Shown: positions 1 through 41,371 of the stretch, piece after piece
Layout: every line of letters begins with the position of its first letter
Numbering within the stretch: position 1 is the first letter of the stretch
IMG/VR virus record: IMGVR_UViG_3300045988_116051
Source of the DNA: a virus
Length of the DNA: 41,371 nucleotides
Strand: one strand, 5' to 3'
The notes under the pieces: model-generated
Database searches by the model: none
What the model saw: the letters and a program-made list of their open reading frames with translations, nothing else
Told to the model about the DNA's origin: nothing
Translations under genes and position numbers: made by a program

Positions 1-141
1 CGGGGACGCCAACCAGTACCACTGTGCAGAGCCGCCACCGTTGTTCATTTTTTTGATCCGGCTGGCATTGTCCGTAAAAATCGGGTACTGCCGCGCATTG
101 CCCGTCGTGCGCTCCGTGGCCGGTGAGTAGCTCGATTCGCC
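1..141. repeat. Terminal direct repeat, copy A (identical to 41231..41371); circular-assembly overlap
   Basis: Read by eye: cggggacgccaaccagtaccactgtgcagagccgcc...ctcgattcgcc occurs at both window ends, 141/141 identical. Confidence 0.95.
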
Positions 142-1014: not shown

Positions 1015-1015
1015 A

Positions 1016-3341: not shown

Positions 3342-4903
3342 TGGTCACACCTCTCCATCGTTAGAGTCATCATGTGTACAGGGGCCAGCTCATGGCTCAC
3401 GGCAGTTACCCAAAACTCGCCCACCTCATCGGGGATGTTCACTTTCATCCGGCACCCGGCAACGACCTTGTCGCTCCCGTACACCCGGCAGCTAAACGTC
3501 TCTTTCGTCCGATTCTTCTTCCCCAGCATGTTTTTTGCCTTGGCCGTGGCGCTCACCGTGTCGCTGTCGGAAAACGTCTCCAGCGCCGTGCGTTTGCCGT
3601 AGCGCTTGATGCTCGCCTCACTGGAGGCCACGCCCTGGATGGAAACGGTATCGTCCTGCTCCGAGTAGACGGTAATGTGGTTCCGCAAGTCGGAAATGTC
3701 CCAGGACACCTGGGGGCTTGCGATCTCCTGCATCACGTCAAACGCTGCCAGGTTGCTCTCCTGCCGGTACCACGCCGTGATGCACTTCTGAGCGTAAGAG
3801 CGGATCACCAGGGTGTTTCCCATCATCCGGGGAAAATAGGTCACGCCGTTCTCGCTGGTCACGGTCTCCAAAATCTTTTGGATGATGTTGCTGGTCGTGT
3901 CCTTCTCCGTGCCATACACGGAAGAAATCAGGTTCGGGCAGCTGATACGCTGGATTCCGACCTTGTTGGCCAGCTGAGACAGTGCATCTTTCGCCGGGAT
4001 GTTGTTGAACTGCATAATCACATCGTTGGTGGTCAGCAGCCGCCCCGCGTCGTGGCACACGATGCTCATACTCTCGCTGTAACTCCCGCTCACGCTCTGC
4101 ACCTGCCCCAGGAAAATGCACTCCCCAGAGGCCAGGTTGCTCACGCTGACCAAATCCCCGCACTGGATCCGCAGCGGCGGGAAGAATTTCTCCCCCCGTG
4201 CTTGGAGTACGGAAAACGTAAACTCCACCGCCACGCTTTCGGAATCGTCCGTCAGGGTAGGGGAGCCGCAGCGATCCGTGATATCCCGCGTCCTGCCGTT
4301 GTTGCCCAGGGCCTGCCACACGATTTTATAGCGGTCCGGGTTTTTGTACGGGGTATCATCCGCATATACCGTGTAAATTTTCTCGGTCTGCGGAATGTGG
4401 ATCACGGTGACTTTTTCATCCGCCTCATCCGTGGTGGCTGAAAACCCGTCTGTCCCGGCGGAAGCAATCGGCCCGCCGGTGTACTTGCCCGCCGTGTCGC
4501 TGTATTTGACGTAGTTGGACGGGTTGACCGGCGTCCCGTTGACGTGTACCTCAAAATGGAGGTGATACCCAGTCACGCCGCCGGTGTTGCCCACCCTGGC
4601 AATGGTCTGTCCAGCCTGGACAGTTTGGCCCAGCTTGACGCCGATGCTGGAACAGTGCTGGTACAGCGTCGAGATGCCGCCGCCGTGGTTGATGATGCAA
4701 AATTTGCCCCTAGCCTTGGAGGTCCAGACCTTCGTCACGTTGCCCCCACGGGCCGCAATGATCGGCGTCCCGTTGGAGGCCGGAATGTCGATGCCTGCAT
4801 GGTTGCTGGATGACATGCCGTTAGACGTCTTGAAAGACTTCCGGTAGCCAAAGGGGGACGATATGCGACTGTAACCCGGCACCGGCCAAATCATCTGTCC
4901 CAT
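3338..4903 (-). CDS. Tail protein with an N-terminal M23 peptidase domain fused to an XkdQ-like baseplate hub domain
   Basis: M23 motifs HAGIDIPA and GYHLHFEVHVNG. 521 aa, downstream of the tape measure gene. Confidence 0.75.
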   Translation of the reverse strand: MGQMIWPVPGYSRISSPFGYRKSFKTSNGMSSSNHAGIDIPASNGTPIIAARGGNVTKVWTSKARGKFCIINHGGGISTLYQHCSSIGVKLGQTVQAGQTIARVGNTGGVTGYHLHFEVHVNGTPVNPSNYVKYSDTAGKYTGGPIASAGTDGFSATTDEADEKVTVIHIPQTEKIYTVYADDTPYKNPDRYKIVWQALGNNGRTRDITDRCGSPTLTDDSESVAVEFTFSVLQARGEKFFPPLRIQCGDLVSVSNLASGECIFLGQVQSVSGSYSESMSIVCHDAGRLLTTNDVIMQFNNIPAKDALSQLANKVGIQRISCPNLISSVYGTEKDTTSNIIQKILETVTSENGVTYFPRMMGNTLVIRSYAQKCITAWYRQESNLAAFDVMQEIASPQVSWDISDLRNHITVYSEQDDTVSIQGVASSEASIKRYGKRTALETFSDSDTVSATAKAKNMLGKKNRTKETFSCRVYGSDKVVAGCRMKVNIPDEVGEFWVTAVSHELAPVHMMTLTMERCDQ

Positions 4904-13236: not shown

Positions 13237-14458
13237 CCTTTTCACCCCCTTTCATAGCTTCGTTGATACTCGTCCACTCCTTGGTATTGGGCGTGTACAT
13301 CTGTTTTGATTTGGGATCGTAGATCACCGTGTCCAGGCCAAGCCGCACAAATTCCAGGCCCAGCGGGTTCTTGCCCTCCTGGTTCCGCACCTCGTCCAGC
13401 TGCATCCAGCCGTTGCGGACGGCTACCTCATACGCCTGGTATCTGGTCAGCATATCGGTGTTGTCCAGGTCGTCCATGTCGATCTCAAACTCAAGGACGC
13501 CTTTCTCTTCCTCCAGCAGGCAAAACCGGTTGATTGCCGATTGCAGCGCCCGGACGATAGGCCGGATGCCGAAGCGGACGGTGTTTTTCAGGTCGTCTGC
13601 CGATGCGCCGCCCTCGATCACAGAGGGGACAATACCGAAAATCTGATAGATTTCATGGTCATTGGTGGCCTTGTTCTGGTTCAGCTGGCTGTCTACTGCC
13701 GTCTGGCCTGCATCCTGGAACTCAATGCCATCGTTCAGAACTACGGTGTTTTCGTCCGAATCGTTCCCGTACAGCTTGTTCCAGCTCTTCCGCAGGGAGT
13801 TGATGACCTCCTGGGTCACTTTTTTCCCGGCCTGAACCTTCAAAAAGCCTTTTTTTGCACCGGTCCGAACCATGCGATTCTCATATTTCATCGTGTTTAA
13901 CACGACGGACAACTGAGTTGGGTTCTCATCCAGAACACCGTAGCCCCGGAAACCATCCTTGGTGTTCCGTAGGATACGGAACAGAACGTCAGGCCGCCAC
14001 TCTTTCTGATTGATATAGAATTTGCCGTCCTTCTCCACAGGGTCGATGTCTTTGGTATAGGAAACATAATCCGGGTTCACATAGCAGATTTTCCGAATGG
14101 TATTCCTATCCCAAAGCACCGCCGTATAGCCGTTGCCTCGAACCAGATAGTCCCGGATCATGGCTTTTTTCCACTCAATGGCATCCAGCGTGTCGCCGGT
14201 GTCGTCGTTCAGCAGGGCCAAACGGTAATCTTTTGTAACCTCTTGGGTGTTCTTCCCTCTGCGCCGGTACAGCTTTACCGGCAGGGTAGCGATGATCCCG
14301 GAGAGAAAGGAAACCGAAGCGGCCACCGCCGGGATCTCCAAAGCGCCGTCTTCCGTGCCCACCTTCGTACCGCCCATAGCGGCACGGAGAGAGGTATCAA
14401 GCGCCCCTTCATCCAGCATCTCCCTGGTCTCCACTTCCTTTTTTGCAAAAATGCCCAT
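13136..14458 (-). CDS. Portal protein (HK97 family)
   Basis: 440 aa. Its start overlaps the terL stop (TAATG). Confidence 0.85.
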   Translation of the reverse strand: MGIFAKKEVETREMLDEGALDTSLRAAMGGTKVGTEDGALEIPAVAASVSFLSGIIATLPVKLYRRRGKNTQEVTKDYRLALLNDDTGDTLDAIEWKKAMIRDYLVRGNGYTAVLWDRNTIRKICYVNPDYVSYTKDIDPVEKDGKFYINQKEWRPDVLFRILRNTKDGFRGYGVLDENPTQLSVVLNTMKYENRMVRTGAKKGFLKVQAGKKVTQEVINSLRKSWNKLYGNDSDENTVVLNDGIEFQDAGQTAVDSQLNQNKATNDHEIYQIFGIVPSVIEGGASADDLKNTVRFGIRPIVRALQSAINRFCLLEEEKGVLEFEIDMDDLDNTDMLTRYQAYEVAVRNGWMQLDEVRNQEGKNPLGLEFVRLGLDTVIYDPKSKQMYTPNTKEWTSINEAMKGGEKDEGRNPIQSEDGQEGTDGDGLRERGGPGQQDTA

Positions 14459-16155
14459 TAAATCACCACCGCTCCCCAGTCAATGGCCTCGGAGAACATG
14501 GTGTTCTGCTGGAGCATGTAAACGGCGTTGATGAGTGCCGCCACCATATCCACCTTGCCATTCGACTTTTTCTTGTTCACATACCGGTTTAGGTTCGTGT
14601 CGAACGTACACCGGGCGTTTTCAAAATTGATCTCCAACAGTTCGTTGGGTTCGTAAGCAAATTTCCCATCGGCCACCAGCTCGGAAAGCCACTTTGTCGC
14701 CGGGTGCAACACACTGGAGTGCTGTTTTACCTCGCAGGTCACATAGGTTTCGTCCCATTTCTGGGCGGAAGAGAGGGCGTTGTATCGGTCAAACCCGATG
14801 CCCAGAACGGTCACGCCGTATTTTTCTTCCACATTGAACACAAAATCTTCCACAACCTTGTAGTCAATGGTCTTATCCCCGCAAGCGACGCACTTCCCGG
14901 CCCGGATAAACTTGCGGTAATCAATGCGCTCCGCTCGGTTCTTTTCCTCGATGCGGCCCTCCGGGATAAATGCGATCACGTCCGCGTAAACCTTCCCAGC
15001 GTCATCGTCCAGAGCCACCATAGCAACCGCTGTGTTGTCGTTGGTCATGGACAAGTCCACGCCCAAATAGACATCTCTGCCATTCCAGTCGATCTTATCC
15101 TGCTGGCAGGCGATCACATCCTGAACGGGAATGTAAGTCTCTGTCCCGACGCCCTGGTAAATGATGTTGCAGTGTTTGCACAAGAAATTCTCGCGCCGCC
15201 CCTCGACCTCAATGGCCTGCTGTCGCTTCTTCTTCAAATCTTCCATGATCTCCGGCACTTCCAGAGCCAAAGGATTCGCATGGGCAAGAATCAGGTCATC
15301 GGACATCCAGTTTGTCGGGTCATCCGGTTCATACAGCAGGGCAAAAACGCTCTCATCCTCTACCACATCATCGAGAATCTTCTTCGCATACCCGATTTCA
15401 TCCTCAAACGGGTTCTTGGTCTTCGGGTATTTGGTGGAAATCACGCACCCCAGCTTGTTCAAAATGGTAAGCTGGCCGGACCGCATGGCCTCCAAAGCGT
15501 AGGGATTCGGCAGACCGCCGACCTCATCCGCCAGGAAAACCGACGGAAGTTTGCCGTCTAGGTGTCCGTTTGAATAGGCCAGGGGATAGTAGCTGTTCTC
15601 CGTCAGGTTGCAGGTGATGGAATCCCGGAGCATTTTGAATTTCTCTTTGCCCTGATACTTCCCAACCAGGGCAGGGGAACTCTTGATGATCTCCTCAATG
15701 GCAGACTTCACTTCGCGGGACAGCGAACCGTCCGGGGCCACACTGTAAAATTTGGAAAATCTAGGCTCCGTCAGGAACAGCAGGATAAAAATTACTGCCA
15801 CCAAGAACGTCTTCCCGTTCTTCCGGGAAATCTCCAGGATAGCCGTCTGATACCGCCGTTTCTCCGGGTTCTCCCGCCAAACGACGCACAAAACTGCCAC
15901 AATGTACAGCCATTGAAATCCAACCAAAGTGTCCCGCACGGACTCCCGCGCTTTCAGGCCTTTTGCCATTACCATCAAACCGAGTAGTTTCTCGATTTTC
16001 TGGATCTTTGCCAAGTCGATCATGTATTTGTCGCTCTTGCCCTGGGCCACGAAAACAAACTCAGAGCATTGCAAGATCACGTATTTCGGGGCTTTGATCT
16101 TGCCGGAAACGACGCTCTTGGCGTACACATACGCCGGGTGATTTTTATCAATCAC
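14458..16155 (-). CDS. terL: Terminase large subunit
   Basis: 565 aa. A Walker-A-like region (ISRKNGKT) and the position after the small subunit support the call. Confidence 0.9.
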   Translation of the reverse strand: MIDKNHPAYVYAKSVVSGKIKAPKYVILQCSEFVFVAQGKSDKYMIDLAKIQKIEKLLGLMVMAKGLKARESVRDTLVGFQWLYIVAVLCVVWRENPEKRRYQTAILEISRKNGKTFLVAVIFILLFLTEPRFSKFYSVAPDGSLSREVKSAIEEIIKSSPALVGKYQGKEKFKMLRDSITCNLTENSYYPLAYSNGHLDGKLPSVFLADEVGGLPNPYALEAMRSGQLTILNKLGCVISTKYPKTKNPFEDEIGYAKKILDDVVEDESVFALLYEPDDPTNWMSDDLILAHANPLALEVPEIMEDLKKKRQQAIEVEGRRENFLCKHCNIIYQGVGTETYIPVQDVIACQQDKIDWNGRDVYLGVDLSMTNDNTAVAMVALDDDAGKVYADVIAFIPEGRIEEKNRAERIDYRKFIRAGKCVACGDKTIDYKVVEDFVFNVEEKYGVTVLGIGFDRYNALSSAQKWDETYVTCEVKQHSSVLHPATKWLSELVADGKFAYEPNELLEINFENARCTFDTNLNRYVNKKKSNGKVDMVAALINAVYMLQQNTMFSEAIDWGAVVI

Positions 16156-21391: not shown

Positions 21392-21757
21392 TTACACAAA
21401 GATTTTCGGCGGCGTGGGCATATCCTGAGAGGTTGGCCGCCAGAGGTGCAGACAGTAGGGATGGTTGTTCACGTACTCGCTCTTTGGCGGGTGGTACTGC
21501 ACGACAGCCTCATCGTTCTAGAAAAACATATCCTTGATAGCACACATCTCCTCCCAGGTTGGCGGCGTTGCCCGTTTGCGGTTGCAGGGGGACACGCTGA
21601 CGTGCTCCCAGCCCCCGCCGTTGCTGGCGATGCAGAAAAACGATTTTCCGCTGACATAAACTTTGAAAGCGCCATTACCAGCATCTCCGGGTCCGCCGTG
21701 GATACGGTACCCAAAATCCCTATCTCTGTATTTGTCCAGGGTATGCAAGTCTTTCAT
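21392..21757 (-). CDS. Conserved phage protein interrupted by one in-frame TAG (21520..21518)
   Basis: MKDLHTLDKY...GGWEHVSVSPCNRKRATPPTWEEMCAIKDMFF*NDEAVVQYHPPKSEYVNNHPYCLHLWRPTSQDMPTPPKIFV*. The frame is uninterrupted apart from the TAG. Confidence 0.6.
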
Positions 21758-22548
21758 TCTGCATCCCCCATCTCCCGATCCCCGGCGGGCAGATCCAGCC
21801 ACCGCCGCCAGCATTTGCAGCAGTCTCCCTCGCCGTCATCCAAGCACTCATTCTTCGGCACGTCCGGGGGACAGGGACCGCAGCCCAGGAGCGCAGCCAG
21901 GGCGTCCGCGTCCATCTCGCGCAGGGCGTCCGCGTCCATCTCGCGCAGGGCGTCCGCGTCCATCTCGCGCAGGGCGTCCGCGTGGGTTTTGGTTGGTTTC
22001 TCCCACTGGTCCGCCTCCTGATACAGCCGGGACGGGGTAGCCACCTCTTGATCGACGTATTTTCCGACGTATTCGTCCAGAATCACGCCGCAAATTGTGT
22101 GGTAATAGATTTGGCAAATTTCCATGCCGGGGTAGATACGCACCGGCTCGGTGGCTGCCAGCTCCAGCGTCCAGCGACCCCGAAAGCCGATATCCCCAAA
22201 CCCGGCGGTCACATGCACAGCCAGTCCCAAGCGCCCCACGGAAGACCGTCCTACGAGTATCGGAACCAGGTTCCGAGTCTCTGTCCATTCCTCCGTGGAC
22301 GCGATGTACACCCTTCCGGGCTTCAACACGTAACCCTCCGGCGGGATGATAATCTCCCGTGTGCGGTTGTCCCGTTTTGGGTCCAACACCGCCTCTGTGT
22401 ACACCAGCATCCGATCCAGCAGGCGCAGATTGTAGCTGTTGGGGCCGAGCTGCTGGTCGTTGTAGGGGTGGATGATGATATCCCCTTTGGACATGCGCTG
22501 GCGGATTTCGTTGCCAGACAGAATACCATATTGGTTCAGTTCGTTCAT
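21754..22548 (-). CDS. dcd: dCTP deaminase with a C-terminal extension of about 84 aa (repeat linker plus Cys-rich tail)
   Basis: Dcd-like core (...LVGRSSVGRLGLAVHVTAGFGDIGFRGRWTLEL...), then ADALREMD x3 and GCGPCPP...CCKCWRRWL. Confidence 0.75.
   Translation of the reverse strand: MNELNQYGILSGNEIRQRMSKGDIIIHPYNDQQLGPNSYNLRLLDRMLVYTEAVLDPKRDNRTREIIIPPEGYVLKPGRVYIASTEEWTETRNLVPILVGRSSVGRLGLAVHVTAGFGDIGFRGRWTLELAATEPVRIYPGMEICQIYYHTICGVILDEYVGKYVDQEVATPSRLYQEADQWEKPTKTHADALREMDADALREMDADALREMDADALAALLGCGPCPPDVPKNECLDDGEGDCCKCWRRWLDLPAGDREMGDAE
21899..21983. repeat. 24-bp perfect tandem repeat, 3.5 copies (agggcgtccgcgtccatctcgcgc)
   Basis: Read directly. It encodes (ADALREMD)n on the minus strand. 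Confidence 0.9.
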
Positions 22549-22562
22549 TTATTTTCCTCCTA

Positions 22563-22582
22563 CGCGGGACACAAGGCCCGCG
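22563..22582. other. GC-rich inverted repeat (cgcggg/cccgcg, 8-nt loop) 17 nt downstream of the VR2 gene stop
   Basis: Read directly. The spacing relative to the stop is the same as for the VR1 hairpin (16 nt), and no U-tract follows. Confidence 0.5.
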
Positions 22583-22598
22583 ATTGTTAGATTTTAGA

Positions 22599-23171
22599 TT
22601 AAATGTCGAAGCCGAAGCAAACACCGCGGCTGTGGCTGGCGTCGTTGTTGCCGCTGTTGCCGCCGTCGGTCACAGTGCAAAAGTACGCGGGGTCTTCCGC
22701 ATGCGGGGATGCCAACCAGTATGGAAATGGGACGCCGTTCAGCGTTTTAACCCGGTTTTCCTTCTCAGAGTAACGATGGAGTACTTCGCACAATTCTTCA
22801 TTCCCGTAGTTGTTTTTTCCAAAGACTTCCTTCTCTCGCAACAATCGGAGCGGCTCAGTTACAACTTCTTGCAAATCGTACGGCAACAAGCGGAAGAGCT
22901 TGCCCAGATATGCCTCCATCGTACTCAACTGCTCACCGTTTTTTGCTTTCCGGTTCTCATTCATGCAGTGAGTATCTTCGAGCAGGTTTTTCGTAAAAAA
23001 CGTTGCGCTCCTATGCCCTGCACGTTCGCAAACCAGCGTGACTTTTTCGCCGGTTTTTAGCTCGATGTCGATTTCGTCACCGATATTCAGTTGACTGGAA
23101 CCGGCATGGACAGCGTCCCTCAGCTCCGCCCATGTTGTTATCGTATCGGCGCATTTTCTGATTTTGATCAT
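22599..23171 (-). CDS. 190-aa stand-alone paralogue of the tail-fibre C-terminal domain, ending in a VR-like segment (VR2)
   Basis: C-terminus ...FPYWLASPHAEDPAYFCTVTDGGNSGNNDASHSRGVCFGFDI* parallels the fibre WYWLASP...YFCGVN...GVCFGLCV*. RBS GGAGG. Confidence 0.8.
   Translation of the reverse strand: MIKIRKCADTITTWAELRDAVHAGSSQLNIGDEIDIELKTGEKVTLVCERAGHRSATFFTKNLLEDTHCMNENRKAKNGEQLSTMEAYLGKLFRLLPYDLQEVVTEPLRLLREKEVFGKNNYGNEELCEVLHRYSEKENRVKTLNGVPFPYWLASPHAEDPAYFCTVTDGGNSGNNDASHSRGVCFGFDI
22612..22716 (-). repeat. VR2: second, diverged copy of the DGR repeat (105 nt, same length as TR)
   Basis: Codon-by-codon alignment to TR gives about 14 differences at TR adenines and about 8 at non-adenine positions. 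It shares GTTTGCTTCGGCTT with VR1. Confidence 0.7.
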
Positions 23172-23207: not shown

Positions 23208-23585
23208 TCACTTTTCCCATTCCACGACTTCCACGCCGATCTCCCGGCGTTCCCAAAATTCATGCGACACCTTCCTGTACCAGCGGCGGTTATCATCCGG
23301 CAAAATCCAACCCTTCAAAGCATCGACGATCATCTTCCCCAGGACGGCGTGATTATCTACATCAAGCCCATCGTCCCAGTAGAAAATCACCTGCACGGGC
23401 GTTTTTACCAGGTCCTTCCGCACTCTAGCCCGTTTTAGAGCTATGATAGTCAGCAGGTGGATATCGTCAGCATCACGTTTCCGCTGGTGGTAGTTTTTCC
23501 CGGAGTAGTAGGCGTTCAGGCTAAATCGTTTGTTCCACGCTGCGACGGCCTTTTTCCTTCCGGGTAGGGGATCTCGAATCTGCAA
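23208..23585 (-). CDS. rusA: RusA-like Holliday junction resolvase
   Basis: ...DDGLDVDNHAVLGKMIVDALKGWILPDDN... matches the RusA D-x-D-N / K / D-D pattern. Confidence 0.65.
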   Translation of the reverse strand: MQIRDPLPGRKKAVAAWNKRFSLNAYYSGKNYHQRKRDADDIHLLTIIALKRARVRKDLVKTPVQVIFYWDDGLDVDNHAVLGKMIVDALKGWILPDDNRRWYRKVSHEFWERREIGVEVVEWEK

Positions 23586-29444: not shown

Positions 29445-29846
29445 ATGGAAAGTTTGAACGACAGAATCAAACTGGTTTTCAAAGATTCTGGACTGACGCA
29501 GATGGACATTTCCAAACGATTGAATATCGCACAATCATCCGTATCGGGAATAATTTCAGGAAAGGCAAATCCGTCAAAGCGTACATTGGCCGACATTGCG
29601 GACCGTTTTGACGTGAATTTGGAATGGCTAAGAGACGGAACGGGCCCGATGAAAAAAGAACACCCATTAAAGCATGATCTTGGCGAGTTTTTCGCGGAAG
29701 TCATTTCGACAGATGTTCCGTACAGGGATGAATTTATTCTCGCGCTTTCGGAGTTAGCCCCGGAACACTGGAAAATACTCGGTGATTTGATTCTGAGGAC
29801 AGCAGAACGAATCAAAGAAAAGACCGAAGAAGGTGAACAGCTATGA
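29445..29846 (+). CDS. CI-like XRE-family repressor
   Basis: HTH LTQMDISKRLNIAQSSVSGIISGK, lysogeny-module position. Confidence 0.75.
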   Translation: MESLNDRIKLVFKDSGLTQMDISKRLNIAQSSVSGIISGKANPSKRTLADIADRFDVNLEWLRDGTGPMKKEHPLKHDLGEFFAEVISTDVPYRDEFILALSELAPEHWKILGDLILRTAERIKEKTEEGEQL

Positions 29847-30889
29847 TATTTTTTGTTATGGTTGTCGCTGTAATTATCGTTTGCTGTATCGTAAACAACA
29901 GGGGCAAAGTGAAAATCCCAAAAGGAAGCCTGCCAAACCCTATGTGGGAAATTTCTGGGAAGGAAATTTTGGACGTAGATGATTACATAGTCCTGGACAC
30001 AGAAACGACAGGACTAAACGCCCAGGAAGAACGGATCATTGAAGTGGCTGCGATCCGTGTTCAAAACGGAATTACAACAGGGCGATACTCCACGTTTGTA
30101 AATCCAGGAAAGAAAGTACCAGAAAAGATTACAAAGCTAACAGGAATCACGAACGAACAAGCTAAAAGCGGGAAACAATATGCCGTAATGGCACATGAGT
30201 TGAGCGTTTTCATGGGAGATTTACCGATGGTGGCGCATAATTCCAATTTCGATGCAAAATTCGTGGAAATTGCATTTCGGGTGGGCGGCATCAGAAAGAA
30301 AATTAACCACATAGACACGATACCAATGGCCCGCGAAGCATTTCCTAACATGGCAAACTACAAATTGGCGACATTGATTCCAGCTTTGCACCTGGCGAAT
30401 GGACCGCAAACCCATAGAGCAATGGATGATGTTCTTGCCACCGCCGAGCTTTTCAAACTTTGTAAAGGAAAGCTGAAAGCGATGAACGAAATAGCCACGG
30501 AAATGAAAACCATTTCCAAGGCCGAGGAAGCGCTAGAGGAAGCCAAAAGTGCGGTTGATATTTTCCTCGCCTACGACAAGGCGGATGCAGCTCTGATGGA
30601 TGCCATTTTGAAAAGTCCAGAATCCATCCTGGAGCTGTACGGTGGCAGGGAAGAGTATTTATCAAAAACCTACGGGCAAGCTGTTAACGCAATGATGCGA
30701 AAAGAGTTTGAAAAAGAAAAAAAGGCGATTCAACGCCTGAAAACAAGAAAGTCTATGGATAATCACATTGCAACCTTCCGGCTTGTGTACGACAACAACG
30801 AAAAGCGGTTAACAAGAGGAAATAGGCAAATGCTCTCGAAATACGTTCGTGAGTTGGGTGAAGTCCGGGACATGGTTTCACCAGAGTAA
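29843..30889 (+). CDS. Membrane-anchored DEDDh (DnaQ-like) 3'-5' exonuclease with a helical C-terminal domain
   Basis: N-terminal TM MIFFVMVVAVIIVCCIV. Exo motifs VLDTETTGL, HNSNFDAKF and HRAMDDV. Confidence 0.7.
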   Translation: MIFFVMVVAVIIVCCIVNNRGKVKIPKGSLPNPMWEISGKEILDVDDYIVLDTETTGLNAQEERIIEVAAIRVQNGITTGRYSTFVNPGKKVPEKITKLTGITNEQAKSGKQYAVMAHELSVFMGDLPMVAHNSNFDAKFVEIAFRVGGIRKKINHIDTIPMAREAFPNMANYKLATLIPALHLANGPQTHRAMDDVLATAELFKLCKGKLKAMNEIATEMKTISKAEEALEEAKSAVDIFLAYDKADAALMDAILKSPESILELYGGREEYLSKTYGQAVNAMMRKEFEKEKKAIQRLKTRKSMDNHIATFRLVYDNNEKRLTRGNRQMLSKYVRELGEVRDMVSPE

Positions 30890-31202: not shown

Positions 31203-31284
31203 ATTCTAGCCCTCTCTCGCACAAACCATATTCTTCCAAAGAAGCAGAACAACAACAAAAAACGTCGAAAGAAGGGGAAAATTG

Positions 31285-32535
31285 ATGAAGAAAGACACAA
31301 AGTACAAATACGTCCGAAAAACGATGACTTGGGAAGGGCGGAGATATGAGGTTACGGGGAAAACGGAGCTGGAAGCACTGGAAAAATTGGCAGAGTTGAA
31401 AGTGCGATTGAAAAACGGCGATGTGGTGATGAATCGAGAGACAACGGTTGATCGGTGGTTTAAGGAATGGTTCCAGCTGTACAAGGCCCCGTCCGGCGGG
31501 ACGAAAAAAAGTCTGAGCATGTACACCGAAAAGTATAATTCGATCATCAGCCCAGCAATCGGGCGGATGAAGCTGGGAGATGTGCGGGAAGTGAATTTGC
31601 AGCGTATCCTGAACAGTCAGGCGGGCATGTCGTTTTCACACGTCTCCAAGCTGCGGATGATCCTCAAGGCCATGTTCTCGCGGGCAGCAGCGTCCCGGAT
31701 CATATCATTCGACCCCAGCACGCAACTGGAGTTGCCGGAGGCGAGCAAGGGAGAACATAGATCGTTGACGGAAGAGGAGCGGGTAGCTCTGTTGAAGGTG
31801 TGCGAGACGCACCGATACGGCTTGTTGATGCAAATCATCCTGTATGCCGGCCTGCGCCCTGGTGAAATCGCGGCGCTGAATTGGGGAGATGTAGATTTTG
31901 AAAAAAACGAAATCAGAGTACACAAAGCCCAGGAAAGCGGTAGTAAGAACATCAAGGCCCCCAAGACAAGCGCGGGGTTCCGGGAGATACCGATGGTTCC
32001 GGAACTCAGAGAACGTCTCTGGGCCGCGAGAGAAGCCCCAGAGGAAGCCGTGGTAAAAAACACAGTAGGTAAGCGTCTGGACAGCGACAGCATGTATAGA
32101 GCGTGGAAGAGTGTCCGAAAAGCGATGGACATCGAAATGGGAGCCACTGTCTACCGGAACCAAATTATCGAGAGTGTCATTGCGCCGGACCTCACTCTGT
32201 ACTGCCTGCGGCACACGTTCTGCACGGATTTACAGCGGGCCAGTATCTCCATCAACATAGCAAAGGAACTCATGGGGCACAGCGATATCAGCGTGACCGC
32301 AAACATCTACACCCATAAGGACCAAGCCACCCTGCACCGCAACATGCAGAAGCTGGCAGCCCTGCGAAGCGCTGTGACAAACTCCTCCGCACATTACGGC
32401 GTTTCCATCTGGCCAATGGGCCAGGGCTTGGCAGATTTCGGTTTTCTGCCGTTCCTGATCTCCCACATGTCCCACACATTCCAGGAGGCGGGCTCTCCAA
32501 CAATCGTGGAGGTAAATGTGGAAAAAATAAGGTAA
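31285..32535 (+). CDS. int: Tyrosine integrase
   Basis: ...GLRPGEIAALNWGDV...HCLRHTF...LMGHSDISVTANIYTH. The tail after the catalytic Tyr is unusually long (about 80 aa). Confidence 0.85.
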   Translation: MKKDTKYKYVRKTMTWEGRRYEVTGKTELEALEKLAELKVRLKNGDVVMNRETTVDRWFKEWFQLYKAPSGGTKKSLSMYTEKYNSIISPAIGRMKLGDVREVNLQRILNSQAGMSFSHVSKLRMILKAMFSRAAASRIISFDPSTQLELPEASKGEHRSLTEEERVALLKVCETHRYGLLMQIILYAGLRPGEIAALNWGDVDFEKNEIRVHKAQESGSKNIKAPKTSAGFREIPMVPELRERLWAAREAPEEAVVKNTVGKRLDSDSMYRAWKSVRKAMDIEMGATVYRNQIIESVIAPDLTLYCLRHTFCTDLQRASISINIAKELMGHSDISVTANIYTHKDQATLHRNMQKLAALRSAVTNSSAHYGVSIWPMGQGLADFGFLPFLISHMSHTFQEAGSPTIVEVNVEKIR

Positions 32536-32787: not shown

Positions 32788-33093
32788 TTACATCCCCTCG
32801 ATCTTCCCCCGCACCTTCGCCACCCAAGGCTCCGTCCGCTCCTCGGTCAGCTCACAAATTGCCGAAATACCGGCTTTATTTTCGTCATCCGTTGCATCTC
32901 GGCAAATTTTCCGCATCATGTCCATGAGCATATCTCGATGCCCCAGTTCCTGGCTGGCCATAGTAGCATAGCTCCGAGCCATGTTAGGATCGTACTCTCT
33001 CAGTTTTTTGGCAATCTTGCCATAATGCTGCGCCCCCATGATCTCATCGTCAATGTCGGCGGCGATGGATTTGATCTGCTCCAATTTTGTCAT
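32788..33093 (-). CDS. Hypothetical helical protein (accessory cluster gene 5)
   Basis: RBS GAGGTG, 101 aa, no recognisable motif. Confidence 0.4.
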   Translation of the reverse strand: MTKLEQIKSIAADIDDEIMGAQHYGKIAKKLREYDPNMARSYATMASQELGHRDMLMDMMRKICRDATDDENKAGISAICELTEERTEPWVAKVRGKIEGM

Positions 33094-33101
33094 GGCACAC
33101 C

Positions 33102-33497
33102 TCAAATCTTATCCACAGTCACGGCGATGTTGGACACGGTGGCGGCGGCAGACAGCACCACGGTATAGGTGGCGCCCGCGCAGTTACCAAATTGCCGCAC
33201 CATCGCAGTGATCGGCAGCGTCACAGCCTCACCAACAGCGGAGGCAGTGACGGTGGCGGTAGCACCAGGCACGGCAACACCGTCCCGCATCAGCGTGGCG
33301 GTGATAGCCCCAGCGGCGGCAGGCAGGGCAGTCAGCACGATGTCGAAATCATAATAGCCTGCGCCGTTGATGATGATGCCATTGCCGTTGAGGTTGATGT
33401 TACACCCAAACCGGCGGATGATGCTCCCCAGCGGGATCGAGCCGCCCGCCGTAGCGGTGGCCCCGGTGTTTACAGTATAGATACCAGAGTTACAGCT
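33102..33497 (-). CDS. Hypothetical Ala/Thr/Gly-rich beta protein, possibly with a BclA-C/C1q-like fold (accessory cluster gene 4)
   Basis: RBS GAGAGGAG, MSCNSGIYTVNTGATATAGG...; the fold guess rests on composition and pattern only. Confidence 0.35.
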   Translation of the reverse strand, partial: SCNSGIYTVNTGATATAGGSIPLGSIIRRFGCNINLNGNGIIINGAGYYDFDIVLTALPAAAGAITATLMRDGVAVPGATATVTASAVGEAVTLPITAMVRQFGNCAGATYTVVLSAAATVSNIAVTVDKI

Positions 33498-33569
33498 CAT
33501 AATTTTTGCTCCTCTCTCAAAAAACAAGGCGGGGACATTTGCCCCCGCCCACCCGGTCAATGCGACCAA

Positions 33570-34157
33570 TTAGATATTGCCGTTGCTGCAGCCGCCGAAA
33601 AACGGGTTGCAGTTGGTTGCATACGCAGTGCTGGTAGGATACCGCACCACGCCGCACATAGCCTGGGCAAGCTCAAGCTGCTGGATGCGAGCCGCCATAG
33701 CCGCCTCGCGGTCTGCGCACATTTTGTCCAAAACTTTCTGGATCCCGGCGGTAATGTTTGCGTTAGTTGCGGCGTTGTAGTTGGCCATGTCAAATCGCAC
33801 GCTGTCGATATTGCGCTGAGTGGTGCAGCAGCAGTCGGAAATCTGTGCCTGGAGGTCCCGGAAATTGCCCTGGGTTGCGTAGCCAAGGTCACAGATGCCC
33901 TTAGTAAGGTTGATGTTTACGCCGTCCAACTGGTCGCTCAGACGGCCCACAGAGTTTTTCAGCTCGTTAAACGAGTTGGCACTGCAAAGGTCCCCCTCGG
34001 TCACGGGGTTGCCGTTGTTGTTGCGGCCAAACCCATTGCCACCCCAACCAAAAATCAGGGCAAACAGGATGATCATGATCCAGCCGCCGCCGGAACCCCA
34101 ACCGTCGCTGTCGCGGGTCACAGCCGCGATGTCGGACAAACTCATTGCGTTATCCAT
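33570..34157 (-). CDS. Hypothetical membrane protein with a Cys-rich helical ectodomain (accessory cluster gene 3)
   Basis: TM GGGWIMIILFALIFGWGG, and 11 Cys including a CCC triplet. Confidence 0.4.
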   Translation of the reverse strand: MDNAMSLSDIAAVTRDSDGWGSGGGWIMIILFALIFGWGGNGFGRNNNGNPVTEGDLCSANSFNELKNSVGRLSDQLDGVNINLTKGICDLGYATQGNFRDLQAQISDCCCTTQRNIDSVRFDMANYNAATNANITAGIQKVLDKMCADREAAMAARIQQLELAQAMCGVVRYPTSTAYATNCNPFFGGCSNGNI

Positions 34158-34214
34158 TTTGTTTTCTCCAATCGTTAAAATTTTACCAGCGGGCGGCCGT
34201 CCCGCAGATAATCG

Positions 34215-35183: not shown

Positions 35184-35915
35184 ATGAAGATGACCGAGAA
35201 CTTGATTAAAAAGCTGGAAGCCAAGGGTTTCAAGCGTTGGACCAAAGGTGAGCATGACCGCCTGTATGCAAATGTCGAGAACTTCGGGTTAGAGCTTGGC
35301 TATTACAAAACCGGTAACGTGTCCTCTGCCACTCTGAACGGCGAGAAAATCAGCCACAGCTACGGTGCAGAAATCAAGCGCAACACCAGCATCTACCTCA
35401 ACGTGAACGACGGTGAGCTGTACCTGACCGACAGAGCCAACGATGAGATCGTTGCCAACGTCAAGGCCGCTATCGCCAAGGCAGAGGAAGAGGTTGCCGC
35501 CGAGGAAGCCACCCGGGAGCCTGCCGAAGCCGAGAACACCGTGGCAGAAGTCGAAGCTGCCGCCAACCTGACCGGCACTCCTGAACAGATTGCCGCCGCC
35601 CGGAAGATCATTGAGGATCAGAAAATTTTCGTCGAGAAAAAGATCCAGAAATACCAGGAGAAGCTAGTCAAAAACGCAGGCAACGAGAAGCGCGTTGCCA
35701 GCTACACCAAAAAAATCAACGCTATGCGCGGCGCACTCTGCTGGGCCATCGAGAACATCACAAGCGCCCAGTGGTGGATTAGAGGGGCGAAATGCACAGA
35801 CTATGGTGCGCCGGTTTGTGACGCCGGTGTTGGTGGATGGAGCGCCATTTTCACAAAATACCTGGAAGACCCCGGCATGAATTTTATCTCCAATTTTTTA
35901 GACGACATAAAGTAA
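35184..35915 (+). CDS. Hypothetical protein (accessory operon gene 1)
   Basis: RBS AAGGAGGAA, 243 aa. The N-terminal domain and a Cys/Trp-rich C-terminal domain are joined by an acidic Ala/Glu linker. Confidence 0.45.
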   Translation: MKMTENLIKKLEAKGFKRWTKGEHDRLYANVENFGLELGYYKTGNVSSATLNGEKISHSYGAEIKRNTSIYLNVNDGELYLTDRANDEIVANVKAAIAKAEEEVAAEEATREPAEAENTVAEVEAAANLTGTPEQIAAARKIIEDQKIFVEKKIQKYQEKLVKNAGNEKRVASYTKKINAMRGALCWAIENITSAQWWIRGAKCTDYGAPVCDAGVGGWSAIFTKYLEDPGMNFISNFLDDIK

Positions 35916-36933: not shown

Positions 36934-37128
36934 TCATAGACTTTTCCGCCGAATCGACGCCAAATCGTTGTTGACGGTCCCCCGCGAGACATCCAACTCT
37001 GCCGCCACATCCTCAATCGCCCACCCCCGCCGGTAATGCAACTCAAAAGCAGCCCGCTCCCGGTCCGTGAGCCATGGATTCCCGTGCATTTTCTCCAACT
37101 GGGCGGGGCTGTACCGATACCTGGGCAT
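36934..37128 (-). CDS. Small sigma-70 region-4-like HTH protein
   Basis: LTDRERAAFELHYRRGWAIEDVAAELDVSRGTVNNDLASIRRK. Confidence 0.55.
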   Translation of the reverse strand: MPRYRYSPAQLEKMHGNPWLTDRERAAFELHYRRGWAIEDVAAELDVSRGTVNNDLASIRRKSL

Positions 37129-37143
37129 GGTATCACCCCCCGC

Positions 37144-37935
37144 TCAAACCTCGGTGGTCTGAATCAACTCCATTCTGCACAGCACAGCGGCCAGCTCATC
37201 CCGCTTGACAAATCGCTCCGGTCCCGTTCCATCCATGATGCCGCGGTGTTTCATGTTCAGGAAATCGCCCTCTTTCCTCGACCACTCCGGTTCCGGCAGG
37301 TTGTCGGCGTAGGCCATGGCCTCGGCTACGATAGCGTAGCACATTTCAGGAGTGAGCTGTTCGATAATTTTTTTGATGTCCATGTCATCCTCCGTTTCCG
37401 CCCCCAGCCGGTTGTTTACGGCCTGGGCAATCGCAGCGTGTTTGTTGTACAGGTAGTCCCCCGGACAGGCTTTGTTCGCTGTCCAGCGATGCACCACCAT
37501 GTTCTGCTCATCCCACTTGCCCATCAAGCTCTGATCCCCCCGCCACAGCAGGCGGGGAATGTTATTCCGCCGGCAGATATCCACCAGCAGCTTGATGAGG
37601 CTGTTGAGCGCCGCCGCATTGCATTTGCACACCCCGTCGGCGTCGCTGGCAACCTCGATGGTGATGATCTGGTGGTCGATTGGGTTGCTGGTACACCAGG
37701 CTCGGTTTTCCTCCCGGCACACCTGGGCAATGGAGCCGTCCCCGCCCACGACGTAGTGGCAGCTAGCCCCGTTTTTTTGCTTCACGGCAAAACGGTTCAT
37801 ATCCGCAAAGCTGCGGGCAGGCAGGTTCCGCCCACCGGCGGTGCAGTGGATTGCCACGCCCTTAATAGTCCCCTGCCGGGGCTTGGTGCAGTTTGGGGAG
37901 TAGTGGACATAGGTGGCCAGGCTGGATTCACTCAT
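37144..37935 (-). CDS. Endolysin, N-acetylmuramoyl-L-alanine amidase (Amidase_2 type) with a C-terminal wall-binding region
   Basis: ...GVAIHCTAG...SCHYVVGGDGSIAQ...ENRAWCTS...ITIEVAS...KACPG. It follows the holin. Confidence 0.75.
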   Translation of the reverse strand: MSESSLATYVHYSPNCTKPRQGTIKGVAIHCTAGGRNLPARSFADMNRFAVKQKNGASCHYVVGGDGSIAQVCREENRAWCTSNPIDHQIITIEVASDADGVCKCNAAALNSLIKLLVDICRRNNIPRLLWRGDQSLMGKWDEQNMVVHRWTANKACPGDYLYNKHAAIAQAVNNRLGAETEDDMDIKKIIEQLTPEMCYAIVAEAMAYADNLPEPEWSRKEGDFLNMKHRGIMDGTGPERFVKRDELAAVLCRMELIQTTEV

Positions 37936-38119
37936 TTTTCGGCCCTCCCTCCGTTTTCTTGGTAAAGAAATACGTGATGATAGCCCCGTAGGCCGTGCAG
38001 AACAGCGCTACAGCGTCCTGGTTCACGTCCACAGGCGAAAACAGCAAGGCGATCATCGCCCCGGTCATGGCCAGCGTTACCAGGCTCTTAACGTCCAGCA
38101 GTTTCAGCAGTTGTTTCAT
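37928..38119 (-). CDS. Holin
   Basis: 63 aa with two TM helices and a charged C-terminus. It overlaps the endolysin start. Confidence 0.7.
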   Translation of the reverse strand: MKQLLKLLDVKSLVTLAMTGAMIALLFSPVDVNQDAVALFCTAYGAIITYFFTKKTEGGPKNE

Positions 38120-39125: not shown

Positions 39126-39422
39126 TTATCCCTCCCGTAAAACCAGCATCGTTTGCTGGTTCGATGGATTTTTCTGGATGCTTACGGCGCTGGTGAATCC
39201 GTGGTATTCCAGCATGGGGCCGTCCCTCTGGTGGATACTGATACAGTCCGGTAAATGCAGAGCAGCTCGATCTACATCCTCGATGGGAGTATCCGCAAAT
39301 ACGATCCGCAGCTCATCGTCTGCTGCAATCACGTTGTCAACGGGGTAAATTTTTCCGCCGATATCCGCATACACTCCAAAAACACCCCTTTCATCGCTGT
39401 TTTTGTTCTCCAGGATTTGCAT
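39126..39422 (-). CDS. Hypothetical protein overlapping the RT 3' end
   Basis: ORF with an internal start at MQILENK. It overlaps the RT gene by about 94 nt. Confidence 0.35.
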   Translation of the reverse strand: MQILENKNSDERGVFGVYADIGGKIYPVDNVIAADDELRIVFADTPIEDVDRAALHLPDCISIHQRDGPMLEYHGFTSAVSIQKNPSNQQTMLVLREG

Positions 39423-40378
39423 TTCGATACATGGCCGCACCAGCTGACAAAACTGGTTCGCAAATCCTCCGGCGGGATTTTTCCAGCCAGCTTTTTCAGT
39501 TTTCTGCGTTGCCTGGTAACGTTTTTCCGGCTGATCCGCCGCACGACGCCTCCGGTTTCCGTGAGGCTGAATTTTTGCTTCAGCCAGGAGAAGCCGCGCC
39601 GAAGTGGGACGATTTGCGTTTTTGTTTCATTCATTTCCACGCCAAATGCTGCCGCTTCTTGTCGAATCACTTCCAGGCAGGCGAGCAAATGCTCTTTGTC
39701 GTGATGGATGATGTAGCCATCATCCATGTAGCGCCCATAGCATTTACAATGCATCCGCTCTTTGATCTTGTGATCGAGCCGATTCGGGACGGCTAGCGCC
39801 AAATTTTGGCTGATTTGGCTGCCAAGCCCCAGACCGACCGGCCCAAACATCCCGACCAGATGCAAAATCAGGTGTTTCAGCCGTTCATCGGCAATGTAGC
39901 GCTCCAAAATTTTTACAATAGCATCATGGCTAATACTGTCGAAAAATTTGTGGAAATCATAGATCAGGATGTATCCATCCCGCTCAAATTTGCGGTAAAA
40001 CTGGTGTAAGTGCGTTTCCAGGCGTCTGAGTGCGTAGTCAACGCCTTTTCCTTTCTGACTGGCCGAGTTATCAGGGATTAGCCTCGGTCCAAGAACGGGA
40101 GTGAGCAGATTATCGCACAAACAACGCTGCACCACGCGCTCCGTGATATGCACAGAGCGGATGTGCCGATGTTTTCCACGCTCAAAAATGTCAAACTCGA
40201 TAAATCCGTTGCTTTTCCATGCGCCACTCAGCAATTTGCGTTGAGCTATGCGCACATTGATAAATGCGTTCTCTTTGTAGGCCTGGGTCGAATGTTTCCA
40301 GCCTACGCCGCGCCTACATTTTTTATAGGCGGCATACAGGTTTCCAAAAGTGAATACGTCTCCAAACTGAATTTTCAA
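39329..40378 (-). CDS. DGR-type reverse transcriptase (TTG start in the ORF track)
   Basis: RT motifs are present: FFDSISH, LGLGSQISQNLA (the SQ motif typical of DGR RTs), and catalytic YMDD. It lies 140 nt downstream of TR. Confidence 0.9.
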   Translation of the reverse strand: MKIQFGDVFTFGNLYAAYKKCRRGVGWKHSTQAYKENAFINVRIAQRKLLSGAWKSNGFIEFDIFERGKHRHIRSVHITERVVQRCLCDNLLTPVLGPRLIPDNSASQKGKGVDYALRRLETHLHQFYRKFERDGYILIYDFHKFFDSISHDAIVKILERYIADERLKHLILHLVGMFGPVGLGLGSQISQNLALAVPNRLDHKIKERMHCKCYGRYMDDGYIIHHDKEHLLACLEVIRQEAAAFGVEMNETKTQIVPLRRGFSWLKQKFSLTETGGVVRRISRKNVTRQRRKLKKLAGKIPPEDLRTSFVSWCGHVSKCKSWRTKTAMKGVFLECMRISAEKFTPLTT

Positions 40379-40518
40379 AAGGGGGAACCTCGCTGGTAGC
40401 GGATTAGCTCGAAAGCGTCCGCGTCTCGGTGATATTTACCCATGTGGGAGGGTCAGGCGCTCCTTACGCGCGTGGACTGATTTCAGCAAACGCTTACTCT
40501 GTCTCCCTACCGCGCAAT

Positions 40519-40623
40519 CCGAAGCAAACGCCGTTGCTGTTGCTGGCGTTGTTGTTGTTGCTGCTGCCGTCGCTGTTCACATTGCAAAAGTTCGTGGAGT
40601 TGGACGCATTCGGGGACGCCAAC
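40519..40623 (-). repeat. DGR template repeat TR (105 nt, non-coding, AAC-rich on the coding strand)
   Basis: Coding-strand TR: TTGGCGTCCCCGAATGCGTCCAACTCCACGAACTTTTGCAATGTGAACAGCGACGGCAGCAGCAACAACAACAACGCCAGCAACAGCAACGGCGTTTGCTTCGG. It matches VR1 and VR2. Confidence 0.9.
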
Positions 40624-40668: not shown

Positions 40669-41070
40669 TCAAAACTTAAAACGTGCCTTGTCGGATTTTT
40701 TCGCCCCGGCGATCAGGCGGCCCTCATCGATCATCAAATCCGCCCAGTGCTCCAGGGCGTGCTCACTCAGGCCGTGTTGCAATTCCATCAAAACGCTGCA
40801 TTTTCCAATCAGGGCTTGCAAGCAGTTGTTCGCCTCGATCAGGTGGTCCCGCCGCATCTGCGCTTCGTGTTCATTCGTCGGGTAGATGCTGTTCGCCATT
40901 TTGCAGTGGTTGTGCACCTCGCTGGCCAAACGGCTCAGCTCCGTCCCAATAAAAAACGTGTAGCGTTTTGGCAGTTTCATGCAGCATTTCAGCGTGTGCA
41001 GTTCCAAATCGTAAGCGGTATCCAAAAATTTGATGCCGCTTTCCTTGCGCTGGCTTTTCAATACCGACAT
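40669..41070 (-). CDS. avd: Accessory variability determinant (Avd-like four-helix-bundle protein)
   Basis: 133-aa basic helical protein located between VR and TR, the canonical DGR position. Confidence 0.75.
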   Translation of the reverse strand: MSVLKSQRKESGIKFLDTAYDLELHTLKCCMKLPKRYTFFIGTELSRLASEVHNHCKMANSIYPTNEHEAQMRRDHLIEANNCLQALIGKCSVLMELQHGLSEHALEHWADLMIDEGRLIAGAKKSDKARFKF

Positions 41071-41085
41071 TCAGGGTCCTTTCCA

Positions 41086-41107
41086 TCCGCGCCAAAGGCG
41101 GCGCGGA
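41086..41107. other. GC-rich inverted repeat (8-bp stem tccgcgcc/ggcgcgga, 6-nt loop) 16 nt downstream of the target stop codon; cruciform/hairpin of the kind associated with DGR target recognition
   Basis: Base pairing read directly. The position between the VR1 gene stop and the avd start matches the arrangement described for the Bordetella phage BPP-1 DGR. Confidence 0.6.
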
Positions 41108-41122
41108 TTATTTGATTTTAGC

Positions 41123-41371
41123 TTAAACGCATAAGCCGAAGCAAACGCCGAAGCTGTCGCTGGCGGTGCTGCTGGCGCTGCTGCTGCCGTCGCTGTTCAC
41201 ACCGCAAAAGTACGCGGAGTTGGACGCATACGGGGACGCCAACCAGTACCACTGTGCAGAGCCGCCACCGTTGTTCATTTTTTTGATCCGGCTGGCATTG
41301 TCCGTAAAAATCGGGTACTGCCGCGCATTGCCCGTCGTGCGCTCCGTGGCCGGTGAGTAGCTCGATTCGCC
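41123..41371 (-). CDS. C-terminal end of the same tail-fibre gene (373 aa in the circular molecule), carrying VR1
   Basis: Same frame as 1..1014 once the 141-nt overlap is collapsed: ...WYWLASPYASNSAYFCGVNSDGSSSASSTASDSFGVCFGLCV*, stop TAA at 41125..41123. Confidence 0.85.
   Translation of the reverse strand, partial: GESSYSPATERTTGNARQYPIFTDNASRIKKMNNGGGSAQWYWLASPYASNSAYFCGVNSDGSSSASSTASDSFGVCFGLCV
41136..41243 (-). repeat. DGR variable region VR1 (108 nt)
   Basis: Aligns to TR 40519..40623. There are 13 substitutions, all at TR adenines on the coding strand, plus one extra AGC codon. Confidence 0.9.
41231..41371. repeat. Terminal direct repeat, copy B (identical to 1..141)
   Basis: Same 141-nt string as the window start. 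Confidence 0.95.

Follow-up and report, generated by a model that had tools for sequence, protein, structure and literature searches.

Diversity-generating retroelements (DGRs) that serve two target genes have been described several times, in Roseburia phage Shimadzu, the Faecalibacterium prophages Lelie and CP11, the Toutatisvirus phages and the tentaclin phages, and we compare with these a locus in a viral contig of 41,371 nt, IMG/VR record IMGVR_UViG_3300045988_116051, the whole of which is referred to here as the window. This genome, that of a gut phage, has one DGR with a fibre-like target gene beside it, and a third copy (VR2; 22609–22716, minus strand) of the template repeat (TR) and of the variable repeat (VR) of the fibre-like gene (VR1) forms the 3′ end of a small open reading frame (ORF) for a 190-aa protein, 17.9 kb from the TR. 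The preliminary description of this sequence had put that distance at about 18 kb, which agrees, and had called a DGR target outside the virion genes unusual, which is not supported as a claim of novelty, since Shimadzu orf43 and the second targets of Lelie/CP11 and Toutatisvirus have already been described. The two-target feature of the window is real, and it is largely a known one.

In Shimadzu (GenBank LR596903; Cornuault et al., bioRxiv 10.1101/575076) the second target, orf43, lies next to the Erf and SSB genes and has been shown by experiment to be diversified. Mutation of both VRs was seen in vitro as well as in mice; 2% of the in vitro reads showed DGR-type changes at both VRs, and 47% of the mouse virome reads were VR2 variants (10.1101/575076). 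Its layout is that of the window: a tail fibre gene with VR1 (orf22), Avd, TR, reverse transcriptase (RT), lysis genes, integrase, and early genes that include the VR2 target. The 209-aa orf43 product is a stand-alone DUF6273 protein homologous to the window protein (tblastn E = 7e-8, 28% over 87%), and both systems have the same A>C change in the initiation of mutagenic homing (IMH) sequence and GC hairpins after both VRs. However, Shimadzu is a Roseburia myovirus, its TR and hairpin sequences are unrelated to those of the window, and its VR2 departs from its TR at 14 A sites and no others, whereas VR2 of the window has eight non-A differences and appears nearly frozen.

The Faecalibacterium prophages Lelie and CP11 encode a 'large' and a 'small' DUF6273 DGR target (PMC11792537), and like the window they have one DGR and two VRs, each VR at the C-terminus of its protein. 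Both VRs of CP11 vary across 37 cognate IMG/VR genomes, and read-level variation was not seen in the cultured strains (PMC11792537). Lelie differs from the window in its phiC31-type integrase, the window having a tyrosine integrase, and the replication-block position of the small target, its cis elements and frozen alleles are not discussed in that paper (PMC11792537). In Toutatisvirus the second VR lies 17,480 nt from the TR in a core gene of unknown function (10.1101/2024.10.15.618418); both targets are again DUF6273/C-lectin-like and some phages keep the targets without a DGR, but this is another genus, and in place of a fibre-like protein the adjacent target is a head-decoration protein, Hoc-like or tentaclin. 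The dual-target DGRs of the tentaclin phages (PMC10743442) also belong to gut phages with one DGR and two DUF6273/C-lectin targets, one of them single-domain, and differ in that the VR of one target is near the N-terminus.

The third repeat copy and its cis elements

A repeat search of the window returns one family of three copies, at 22609–22716 (VR2), 40516–40623 (TR) and 41136–41243 (VR1), and the cognate RT with its DGR signature, Avd and the TR are all present in the same genome as VR2. As had been described, VR2 is of TR length and lies in the C-terminal part of its ORF; the alignment with the TR is free of insertions and deletions over 108 nt, with 79% identity. The two differ at 15 of the 30 TR adenines (a count that includes the A>C change of the IMH) and at eight of the 78 other sites (Fisher p = 2e-5), in keeping with the roughly 14 and eight estimated previously. 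The non-A changes include all four that had been listed as examples (GCG>GCA, TCC>GAA, TCC>CCC and GGC>GGT), and also AGC>GAC and AGC>AAC. Corresponding numbers for VR1 are 13–14 A-site differences and none elsewhere. VR2 is placed as a DGR target should be, at the 3′ end of its ORF, stopping 10 nt before the stop codon; the strict standard that DGR finders apply to active pairs is zero non-A mismatches, against the eight of VR2.

VR1 exceeds the TR by one codon, which falls inside the (AAC)4 run of the latter. The same additional codon (giving five NNC codons) is found in VR1 of four relatives (L022, L023, L027 and L028), and some VR2 alleles (L160, L177 and L181) are one codon longer or two codons shorter. 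These changes of codon number in the AAC run suggest slippage during reverse transcription or integration.

The 3′ ends of the three copies read GGTGTTTGCTTCGGCTT in VR2 (22609–22625, minus strand), GGCGTTTGCTTCGGCTT in VR1 and GGCGTTTGCTTCGGATT in the TR. Both VRs therefore contain the IMH GTTTGCTTCGGCTT, which bears out the VR1-like ending reported earlier, and its TR counterpart is GTTTGCTTCGGATT; the VRs have GGCTT where the TR has GGATT, a VR-type C for the TR A. The IMH of VR2 matches at 16 of 17 bases, with a single C>T mismatch at VR position 94. Next to it, the 3′ flank of VR2 (22583–22608, minus strand), which comprises the last codons, the stop codon and a 16-nt spacer (…TTTAATCTAAAATCTAACAAT), resembles the 3′ flank of VR1 (…TTTAAGCTAAAATCAAATAAT), and the likeness runs past the stop codon, as TTTAA(G/T)CTAAAATC(A/T)AA(T/C)AAT. 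The flank has no counterpart after the TR, where the sequence is unrelated.

Hairpins follow both VRs. That of VR2 (22563–22582, minus strand; CGCGGG, an 8-nt loop and CCCGCG) has a 6-bp stem and lies directly upstream of the ribosome-binding site (RBS) of dcd; its predicted free energy is −7.6 kcal/mol (z −2.5 to −3.5). The VR1 hairpin (41085–41108, minus strand) has a 10-pair stem and a 4-nt loop (−12.5 kcal/mol, z −3.1 to −4.1). The preliminary description is right that a hairpin is present at a like distance from each stop codon, although the distances are 16 nt for VR2 and 14 nt for VR1 and not those given there. It was also right that no obvious terminator is present: no terminator-like site was found at either hairpin, and we reject a terminator at the VR2 hairpin because it lacks a T-run behind it and is followed at once by the dcd RBS. 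Apart from small corrections of this kind, the sequence-level statements of the preliminary description hold, with an accuracy of a base or two.

The VR1 stem is invariant in 12 relatives while its central bases vary. The VR2 hairpin is likewise kept in most relatives' VR2 flanks, with the consensus GCGGGGC, a 5-nt loop and GCCCCGC, and in L016 the loop is wholly different and the stem intact. It is broken or absent in six contigs (L011, L015, L012/L173 and L017/L018) and weak in L166, and a DGR was undetected in every one of these. Variation in the VR2 stems of relatives is confined to single mismatches, wobble pairs and one loop replacement; double compensatory pairs are absent, so that selection on the hairpin structure is suggested but not proven.

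The DGR prototype, that of Bordetella phage BPP-1 with its target Mtd, was reported by Guo et al. (2011) to recognise its target through the IMH and a hairpin/cruciform, and the pattern of hairpin conservation described above would fit a comparable role in target recognition. BPP-1 also resembles the window in the adenine-specific transfer from TR to VR, in a VR at the 3′ end of a gene with a C-type-lectin fold, in an IMH that differs from that of the TR (IMH*) and in a GC-rich hairpin downstream of the VR. Its single target is adjacent and on the virion, whereas the window has a second target 17.9 kb away and outside the structural module, and the VR2 hairpin of the window is shorter, with a larger loop, than that of BPP-1.

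The 190-aa protein and its variable residues

The 190-aa protein is a stand-alone C-type-lectin-like DUF6273 domain and, as had been proposed from sequence inspection, a paralogue of the C-terminal domain of the fibre-like protein. Its residues 13–188 align with residues 154–371 of the fibre-like protein (BLASTP E = 1e-14, 27% identity), and structure prediction gives a DUF6273-type fold. Searches of Pfam, PHROGs and NCBIfam at default thresholds return no match to it; the DUF6273 profile (PF19789) scores 15.9 bits (E = 0.012), below the gathering score of 23.5, a close homologue (P0045) scores 23.4 bits, and several homologues carry PF19789 in precomputed annotation. The match of the 373-aa fibre-like protein to DUF6273 scores 44.4 bits. 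There are 394 database homologues of the small protein, nearly all of 190 aa, and 8151 related clusters are recovered when a profile is run against 1.84 billion cluster representatives; many of them are stand-alone proteins of 190–220 aa, and giant multi-copy proteins are also among them. The DUF6273-like family amounts to more than 8000 clusters at 50% identity, and the domain occurs in up to 12 matched stretches of giant proteins of 1500–4000 aa (P0261–P0269).

An AlphaFold2 model of the 190-aa protein has a predicted local distance difference test (pLDDT) score of 90.5 and a predicted template modelling (pTM) score of 0.86; this confident model was obtained from a diverse alignment of 65 sequences, 47 close homologues having given an unusable pLDDT of 42.9. 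Its best matches in BFVD are DUF6273 proteins (E = 2.4e-27, TM 0.92), and further viral matches are tail-collar fibre proteins and receptor-binding proteins. The best matches in the PDB are the Thomasclavelia IgA peptidase 9qa6 and the C-terminal domain of Legionella Lcl (8q4e; TMt 0.67), with C-type lectins ranking next at weak E-values; a sequence search of the PDB with the family profile gave nothing meaningful. The variable residues (157–182) map to the C-terminal beta-strands of the model, and inspection of the N-terminus reveals no hydrophobic stretch.

Variability in the gene family is concentrated in the VR. Across 107 equal-length homologues and the window protein, entropy is mostly no more than about 1 bit over residues 1–156, reaching 2.3 at a few positions, and is 2.1–3.3 bits at residues 157, 159, 160, 163, 166, 168, 174–177, 180 and 182. 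These residues correspond to AAY codons of the TR with the exception of 159, a codon that differs between TR alleles. At the DNA level, 21 same-register ORFs, comprising 17 VR alleles, were compared: TR-A sites have a minor-allele fraction of 0.37, while that of the remaining VR sites is 0.087 and that of the ORF outside the VR 0.109 (Mann-Whitney p = 1.7e-8). The VR2 of one relative (contig 084946) departs from the TR of that genome at 18 A sites and, outside these, at a single base, in the IMH. Hypervariability at adenine sites among close relatives is therefore a property of the gene family, while the window's own allele is mostly invariant.

Two further observations concern this family. 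One phage (IMGVR_UViG_3300045988_095641; L013/L175) has two tandem VR2-type small genes 2.2 kb apart, at approximately 1276–1383 and 3456–3563 of L013, each with its own diversified VR, IMH and hairpin. Small targets of the Shimadzu type (P0141, P0142 and P0160) form clusters at 90% identity with 1006 to 4824 distinct member sequences, and clusters of this size are probably the trace left in databases by DGR hypervariation of a highly abundant gut phage.

Because the 190-aa and fibre-like proteins are paralogues, the likeness of VR2 to the TR could be taken for mere paralogy of the two domains, or for chance, with no relation to the DGR. We give this practically no weight. The proteins are only about 27% identical outside the VR, yet VR2 and the TR share 79% of their nucleotides; the mismatches are concentrated on adenines (p = 2e-5); the likeness to VR1 extends into the non-coding 3′ flank; and the population variation is specific to adenine sites. 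The mismatch, variability and per-genome TR comparisons together effectively refute it.

VR2 and VR1 against the resident TR

The relation of each VR to the TR of its own genome was compared in six genomes. VR1 has no non-A mismatch to the resident TR in any of the six, and every genome has a different VR1, from which the DGR is judged intact and active on VR1. VR2 has 1, 4, 8, 8, 8 and 14 non-A mismatches to the resident TR in the same comparison, and the VR2 allele of a genome shows no relation to its VR1 allele at the A sites. Since in each of the five relatives tested VR1 follows the TR of its genome exactly, changes that arise in the TR are evidently copied quickly into VR1 and not into VR2.

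TR alleles do differ among relatives (L019–L029), with TCC, AGC, ACC or TCG at codon 159, TCC, GCC, ACC or TCT at codon 161, AGC or GAC at codon 169, and GTT TGC, GTG TGC or GTG AGC in the IMH-proximal sequence. Part of the non-A mismatches of the window fit such other alleles, namely GAC at codon 169 and CCC from an ACC codon 161, and the 5′ two-thirds of the window VR2 were probably written by a TR allele different from the resident one; the event may date from an ancestor, or may have taken place in a different phage and been followed by recombination. A related case is contig IMGVR_UViG_3300045988_081074 (L288), whose VR2 is closer to a window-type TR than to its own, either because VR2 lags behind or because it has been exchanged between genomes. 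This contig is DGR-positive with a divergent TR of its own (AAC GAC AGC AAC), and its VR2 IMH reads TGCTTTGGCTTT, with a TTC>TTT change.

Two sister alleles bear on the activity of VR2. In L282 the ORF is identical to that of the window over nucleotides 1–455, and the seven nucleotides that differ all fall at VR positions 66–94; six of these are TR-A sites, and the remaining one, at position 94, is a return to the TR base. In L284 there are six differences at VR positions 71–94, five at TR-A sites together with the same change at position 94. The two alleles thus differ from that of the window by 13 changes, 11 at TR-A sites and two at position 94, a pattern that reads as the footprint of IMH-anchored homing in which only the 3′ third of the VR is replaced, and both argue against complete inactivity of VR2.

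From these observations we consider it likely that the single DGR of this phage has in VR2 a genuine and remote second target. Its rewriting is probably much rarer than that of VR1 and for the most part restricted to the IMH-proximal 3′ third. The window allele (…HAEDPAYFCTVTDGGNSGNNDASHSR…) is itself widespread and nearly fixed. Of the three options offered in the preliminary description, a live target only partly overwritten, a decaying former target and a target of a TR that has since changed, the first and third are favoured in combination, with a smaller share of probability left to pure decay in the window genome, for which the identical allele in DGR-less contigs speaks in part. On the favoured reading we infer that homing continues in this exact genome.

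Several points weigh against this. VR2 has its eight non-A mismatches to the resident TR, one of them inside the IMH, and its hairpin is weaker than the family consensus, with one G deleted and 6 bp left. The DNA of VR2 recurs unchanged in at least six other IMG/VR contigs (073795, 072688, 139886, 092515, 080551 and 3300029746_000016), and the exact protein (P0127) is present on 25 contigs; VR2 stays constant among proteins in which as many as 27 of the first 156 residues differ. The window allele also occurs in contig 073795, despite a distance of 14 non-A sites between it and the TR of that contig. Three carriers of the allele (139886, 092515 and 3300029746_000016), which are 41–47 kb in length, have a single repeat copy, and RT, fibre, TR and VR1 went undetected in them in four independent pattern scans. 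In such comparisons the TR was tracked in relatives with a 24-nt TR-spacer pattern and a repeat-head pattern, a 14-mer IMH* pattern being non-specific. The preliminary description had held that an identical VR2 in relatives lacking a DGR, if coupled with an absence of population variability, would speak against a target, and these three contigs provide the former. In addition, codon 182 of L282 (CGC) is unchanged inside the apparently rewritten tract, where a simple 3′-anchored replacement would have kept it only by chance, and the genomes are mosaic, so that ancestral states are uncertain.

The same facts are what recommends a second explanation, that VR2 in the window is a dead relic, once written by the DGR, no longer hit and kept by selection as an ordinary gene, with later differences between alleles arising from recombination or point mutation. 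The DNA-identical copies in at least six contigs and the exact protein on 25, the presence of the allele in three near-complete contigs with a single repeat copy, the eight non-A mismatches including IMH position 94, and the shortened hairpin are all as expected of a relic, and Toutatisvirus phages that lack a DGR still keep their target genes (10.1101/2024.10.15.618418). Against a relic, 11 of the 13 differences of L282 and L284 fall on TR adenines, the others being the TR base at position 94, and all of them are confined to the IMH-proximal third; the remaining 455 nt of the L282 ORF are identical to the window. The IMH also retains its match at 16 of 17 bases, and the stability of the hairpin remains significant. 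A relic in this genome is accordingly the less probable account, at perhaps the level of a serious outside chance.

A second allele (…YASNSTYFRYVRSDGSSNYATASYSY…), in which the conserved Cys165 is replaced by Arg, also appears to be frozen, and is found in L012, L014, L018 and L173 with minor variants. No DGR was detected in these four contigs, and the downstream hairpin is deleted or absent in three of them.

A third explanation is that the DGR homes to VR1 only and that the diversity of VR2 is second-hand, acquired by homologous gene conversion with VR1, or the VR2 of co-infecting phages, as the donor. VR1 and VR2 do share about 110 nt and their flanks, the genomes are clearly mosaic, and VR2 often fits a non-resident TR allele, as it does in contig 081074. 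Yet the VR1-specific end GGCTTATGC is present in no VR2, the ends of which stay GGCTT(C/T)GA(C/T)AT; VR2 and VR1 of one genome are unrelated at A sites; and VR2 retains an IMH, spacer and hairpin of its own, which conversion alone would not explain. In a clonal Shimadzu culture, moreover, 2% of reads at both VRs had 10–15 DGR-type mismatches (10.1101/575076). We regard second-hand diversity as very improbable.

If VR2 is a second DGR target, as we favour, the mechanism would by analogy with BPP-1 and Shimadzu be as follows. The RT (39329–40378) and Avd would copy TR RNA to cDNA, with misincorporation opposite template adenines, and the cDNA would then replace a VR, guided by the VR-type IMH (…GTTTGCTTCGGCTT, with C for the TR A), the downstream spacer and the GC hairpin, an equipment that VR1 and VR2 both carry. 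The repeat, its cis elements, the fold, the population-wide adenine-specific diversity and the 3′-limited differences between otherwise identical genes are displayed directly by the window and its relatives; the experimental diversification of both VRs comes only from the homologous Shimadzu system.

Genome context and possible roles of the small target

The first 141 bases of the window are repeated exactly at 41231–41371, and the contig therefore represents a phage genome of about 41.23 kb that is circularly closed (or terminally redundant). Its map is that of a temperate siphovirus-like phage, and megablast of positions 18000–41000 against the GenBank phage collection found no match and no close relative. 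The DGR is of canonical type and lies on the minus strand in the order fibre-like gene with VR1, Avd, TR and RT. The fibre-like gene crosses the circular junction, and its reading frame was rebuilt across the terminal repeat: the 5′ part occupies 1–1014 (minus strand, ATG at 1014) and the 3′ part 41123–41371 (minus strand, stop at 41123), for a total of 373 aa, with the 111 nt of VR1 (41133–41243, minus strand) at its 3′ end. The Avd accessory gene (40669–41070, minus strand) matches phrog_3206, 'Avd protein of DGR' (E = 1.3e-12). The TR (40516–40623, minus strand; IMH* ...TTCGGATTG) sits between Avd and the RT gene (39329–40378, minus strand), which encodes a 349-aa protein with an RVT_1 match (E = 1.1e-17) and intact LGLGSQISQ and YMDD motifs. 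Between the TR and RT, on the 3′ side of the TR at approximately 40440–40482 (minus strand), there is an element of about 40 nt, GAAATCAGTCCACGCGCGTAAGGAGCGCCTGACCCTCCCAC, that is nearly invariant in all 11 related DGRs (L019–L029) while adjacent bases vary; it is probably part of a structured DGR RNA spacer.

The ORF for the 190-aa protein (22599–23171, minus strand) ends ...GVCFGFDI*, and VR2 encodes its residues ~153–188. It was placed previously between rusA and dcd, and database matches confirm both neighbours: upstream, beyond a 36-nt gap, is a RusA-like resolvase gene (23208–23585, minus strand; phrog_4632, E = 5.6e-20), and downstream, beyond a 50-nt gap, the dCTP deaminase gene dcd (21754–22548, minus strand; PF22769, E = 3.1e-42). 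The ORF is co-oriented with this replication and nucleotide-metabolism block, an early block on the minus strand that encodes, in order, a Gam-like protein, Erf, an HNH protein, SSB, a replication initiator, RusA, the 190-aa protein, dCTP deaminase and a methyltransferase. Other genes identified by family annotation include an amidase (37144–37935, minus strand) and a tyrosine integrase (31282–32535, plus strand); TerL (14458–16155, minus strand) is followed by portal and then tail genes. The plus-strand ORF at 29843–30889, which comparison with relatives had put forward as the integrase, was rejected as such: it encodes an RNase_T-family exonuclease, and the gene after it on the plus strand is that of the integrase. 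Several plus-strand ORFs located from there to the lysis/DGR region (33087–34178, 35184–35915 and 37036–37965) have no family match.

The conserved replication-block position of such genes in distantly related phages, and the lack of an anchoring domain, would be compatible with a non-virion role of this small, apparently cytoplasmic, DGR-diversified and lectin-like protein in the early programme. We therefore raise, as a tentative and rather doubtful proposal, that the small DUF6273 protein is a non-virion binder, intracellular or released on lysis, that is co-expressed with the replication genes and undergoes diversification by the DGR; it might serve as an anti-defence or host-takeover factor, or as a receptor-masking factor. 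Were this so, one phage DGR would diversify two functionally different interfaces, and the near-fixed VR2 allele across diverged and even DGR-less backgrounds would represent a selective sweep for one ligand specificity.

The window adds another well-resolved single phage DGR, in which an adjacent fibre target is combined with a small C-lectin protein whose gene lies at a distance, among replication genes. Two features that go further than earlier publications are suggested by the comparisons made here. First, the two targets of one DGR may be rewritten at very different rates, with VR2 lagging by 1 to 14 non-A sites. Secondly, the rewriting of VR2 may stay within its IMH-proximal third, and single VR2 alleles may spread and freeze across genomic backgrounds, including those without a DGR.

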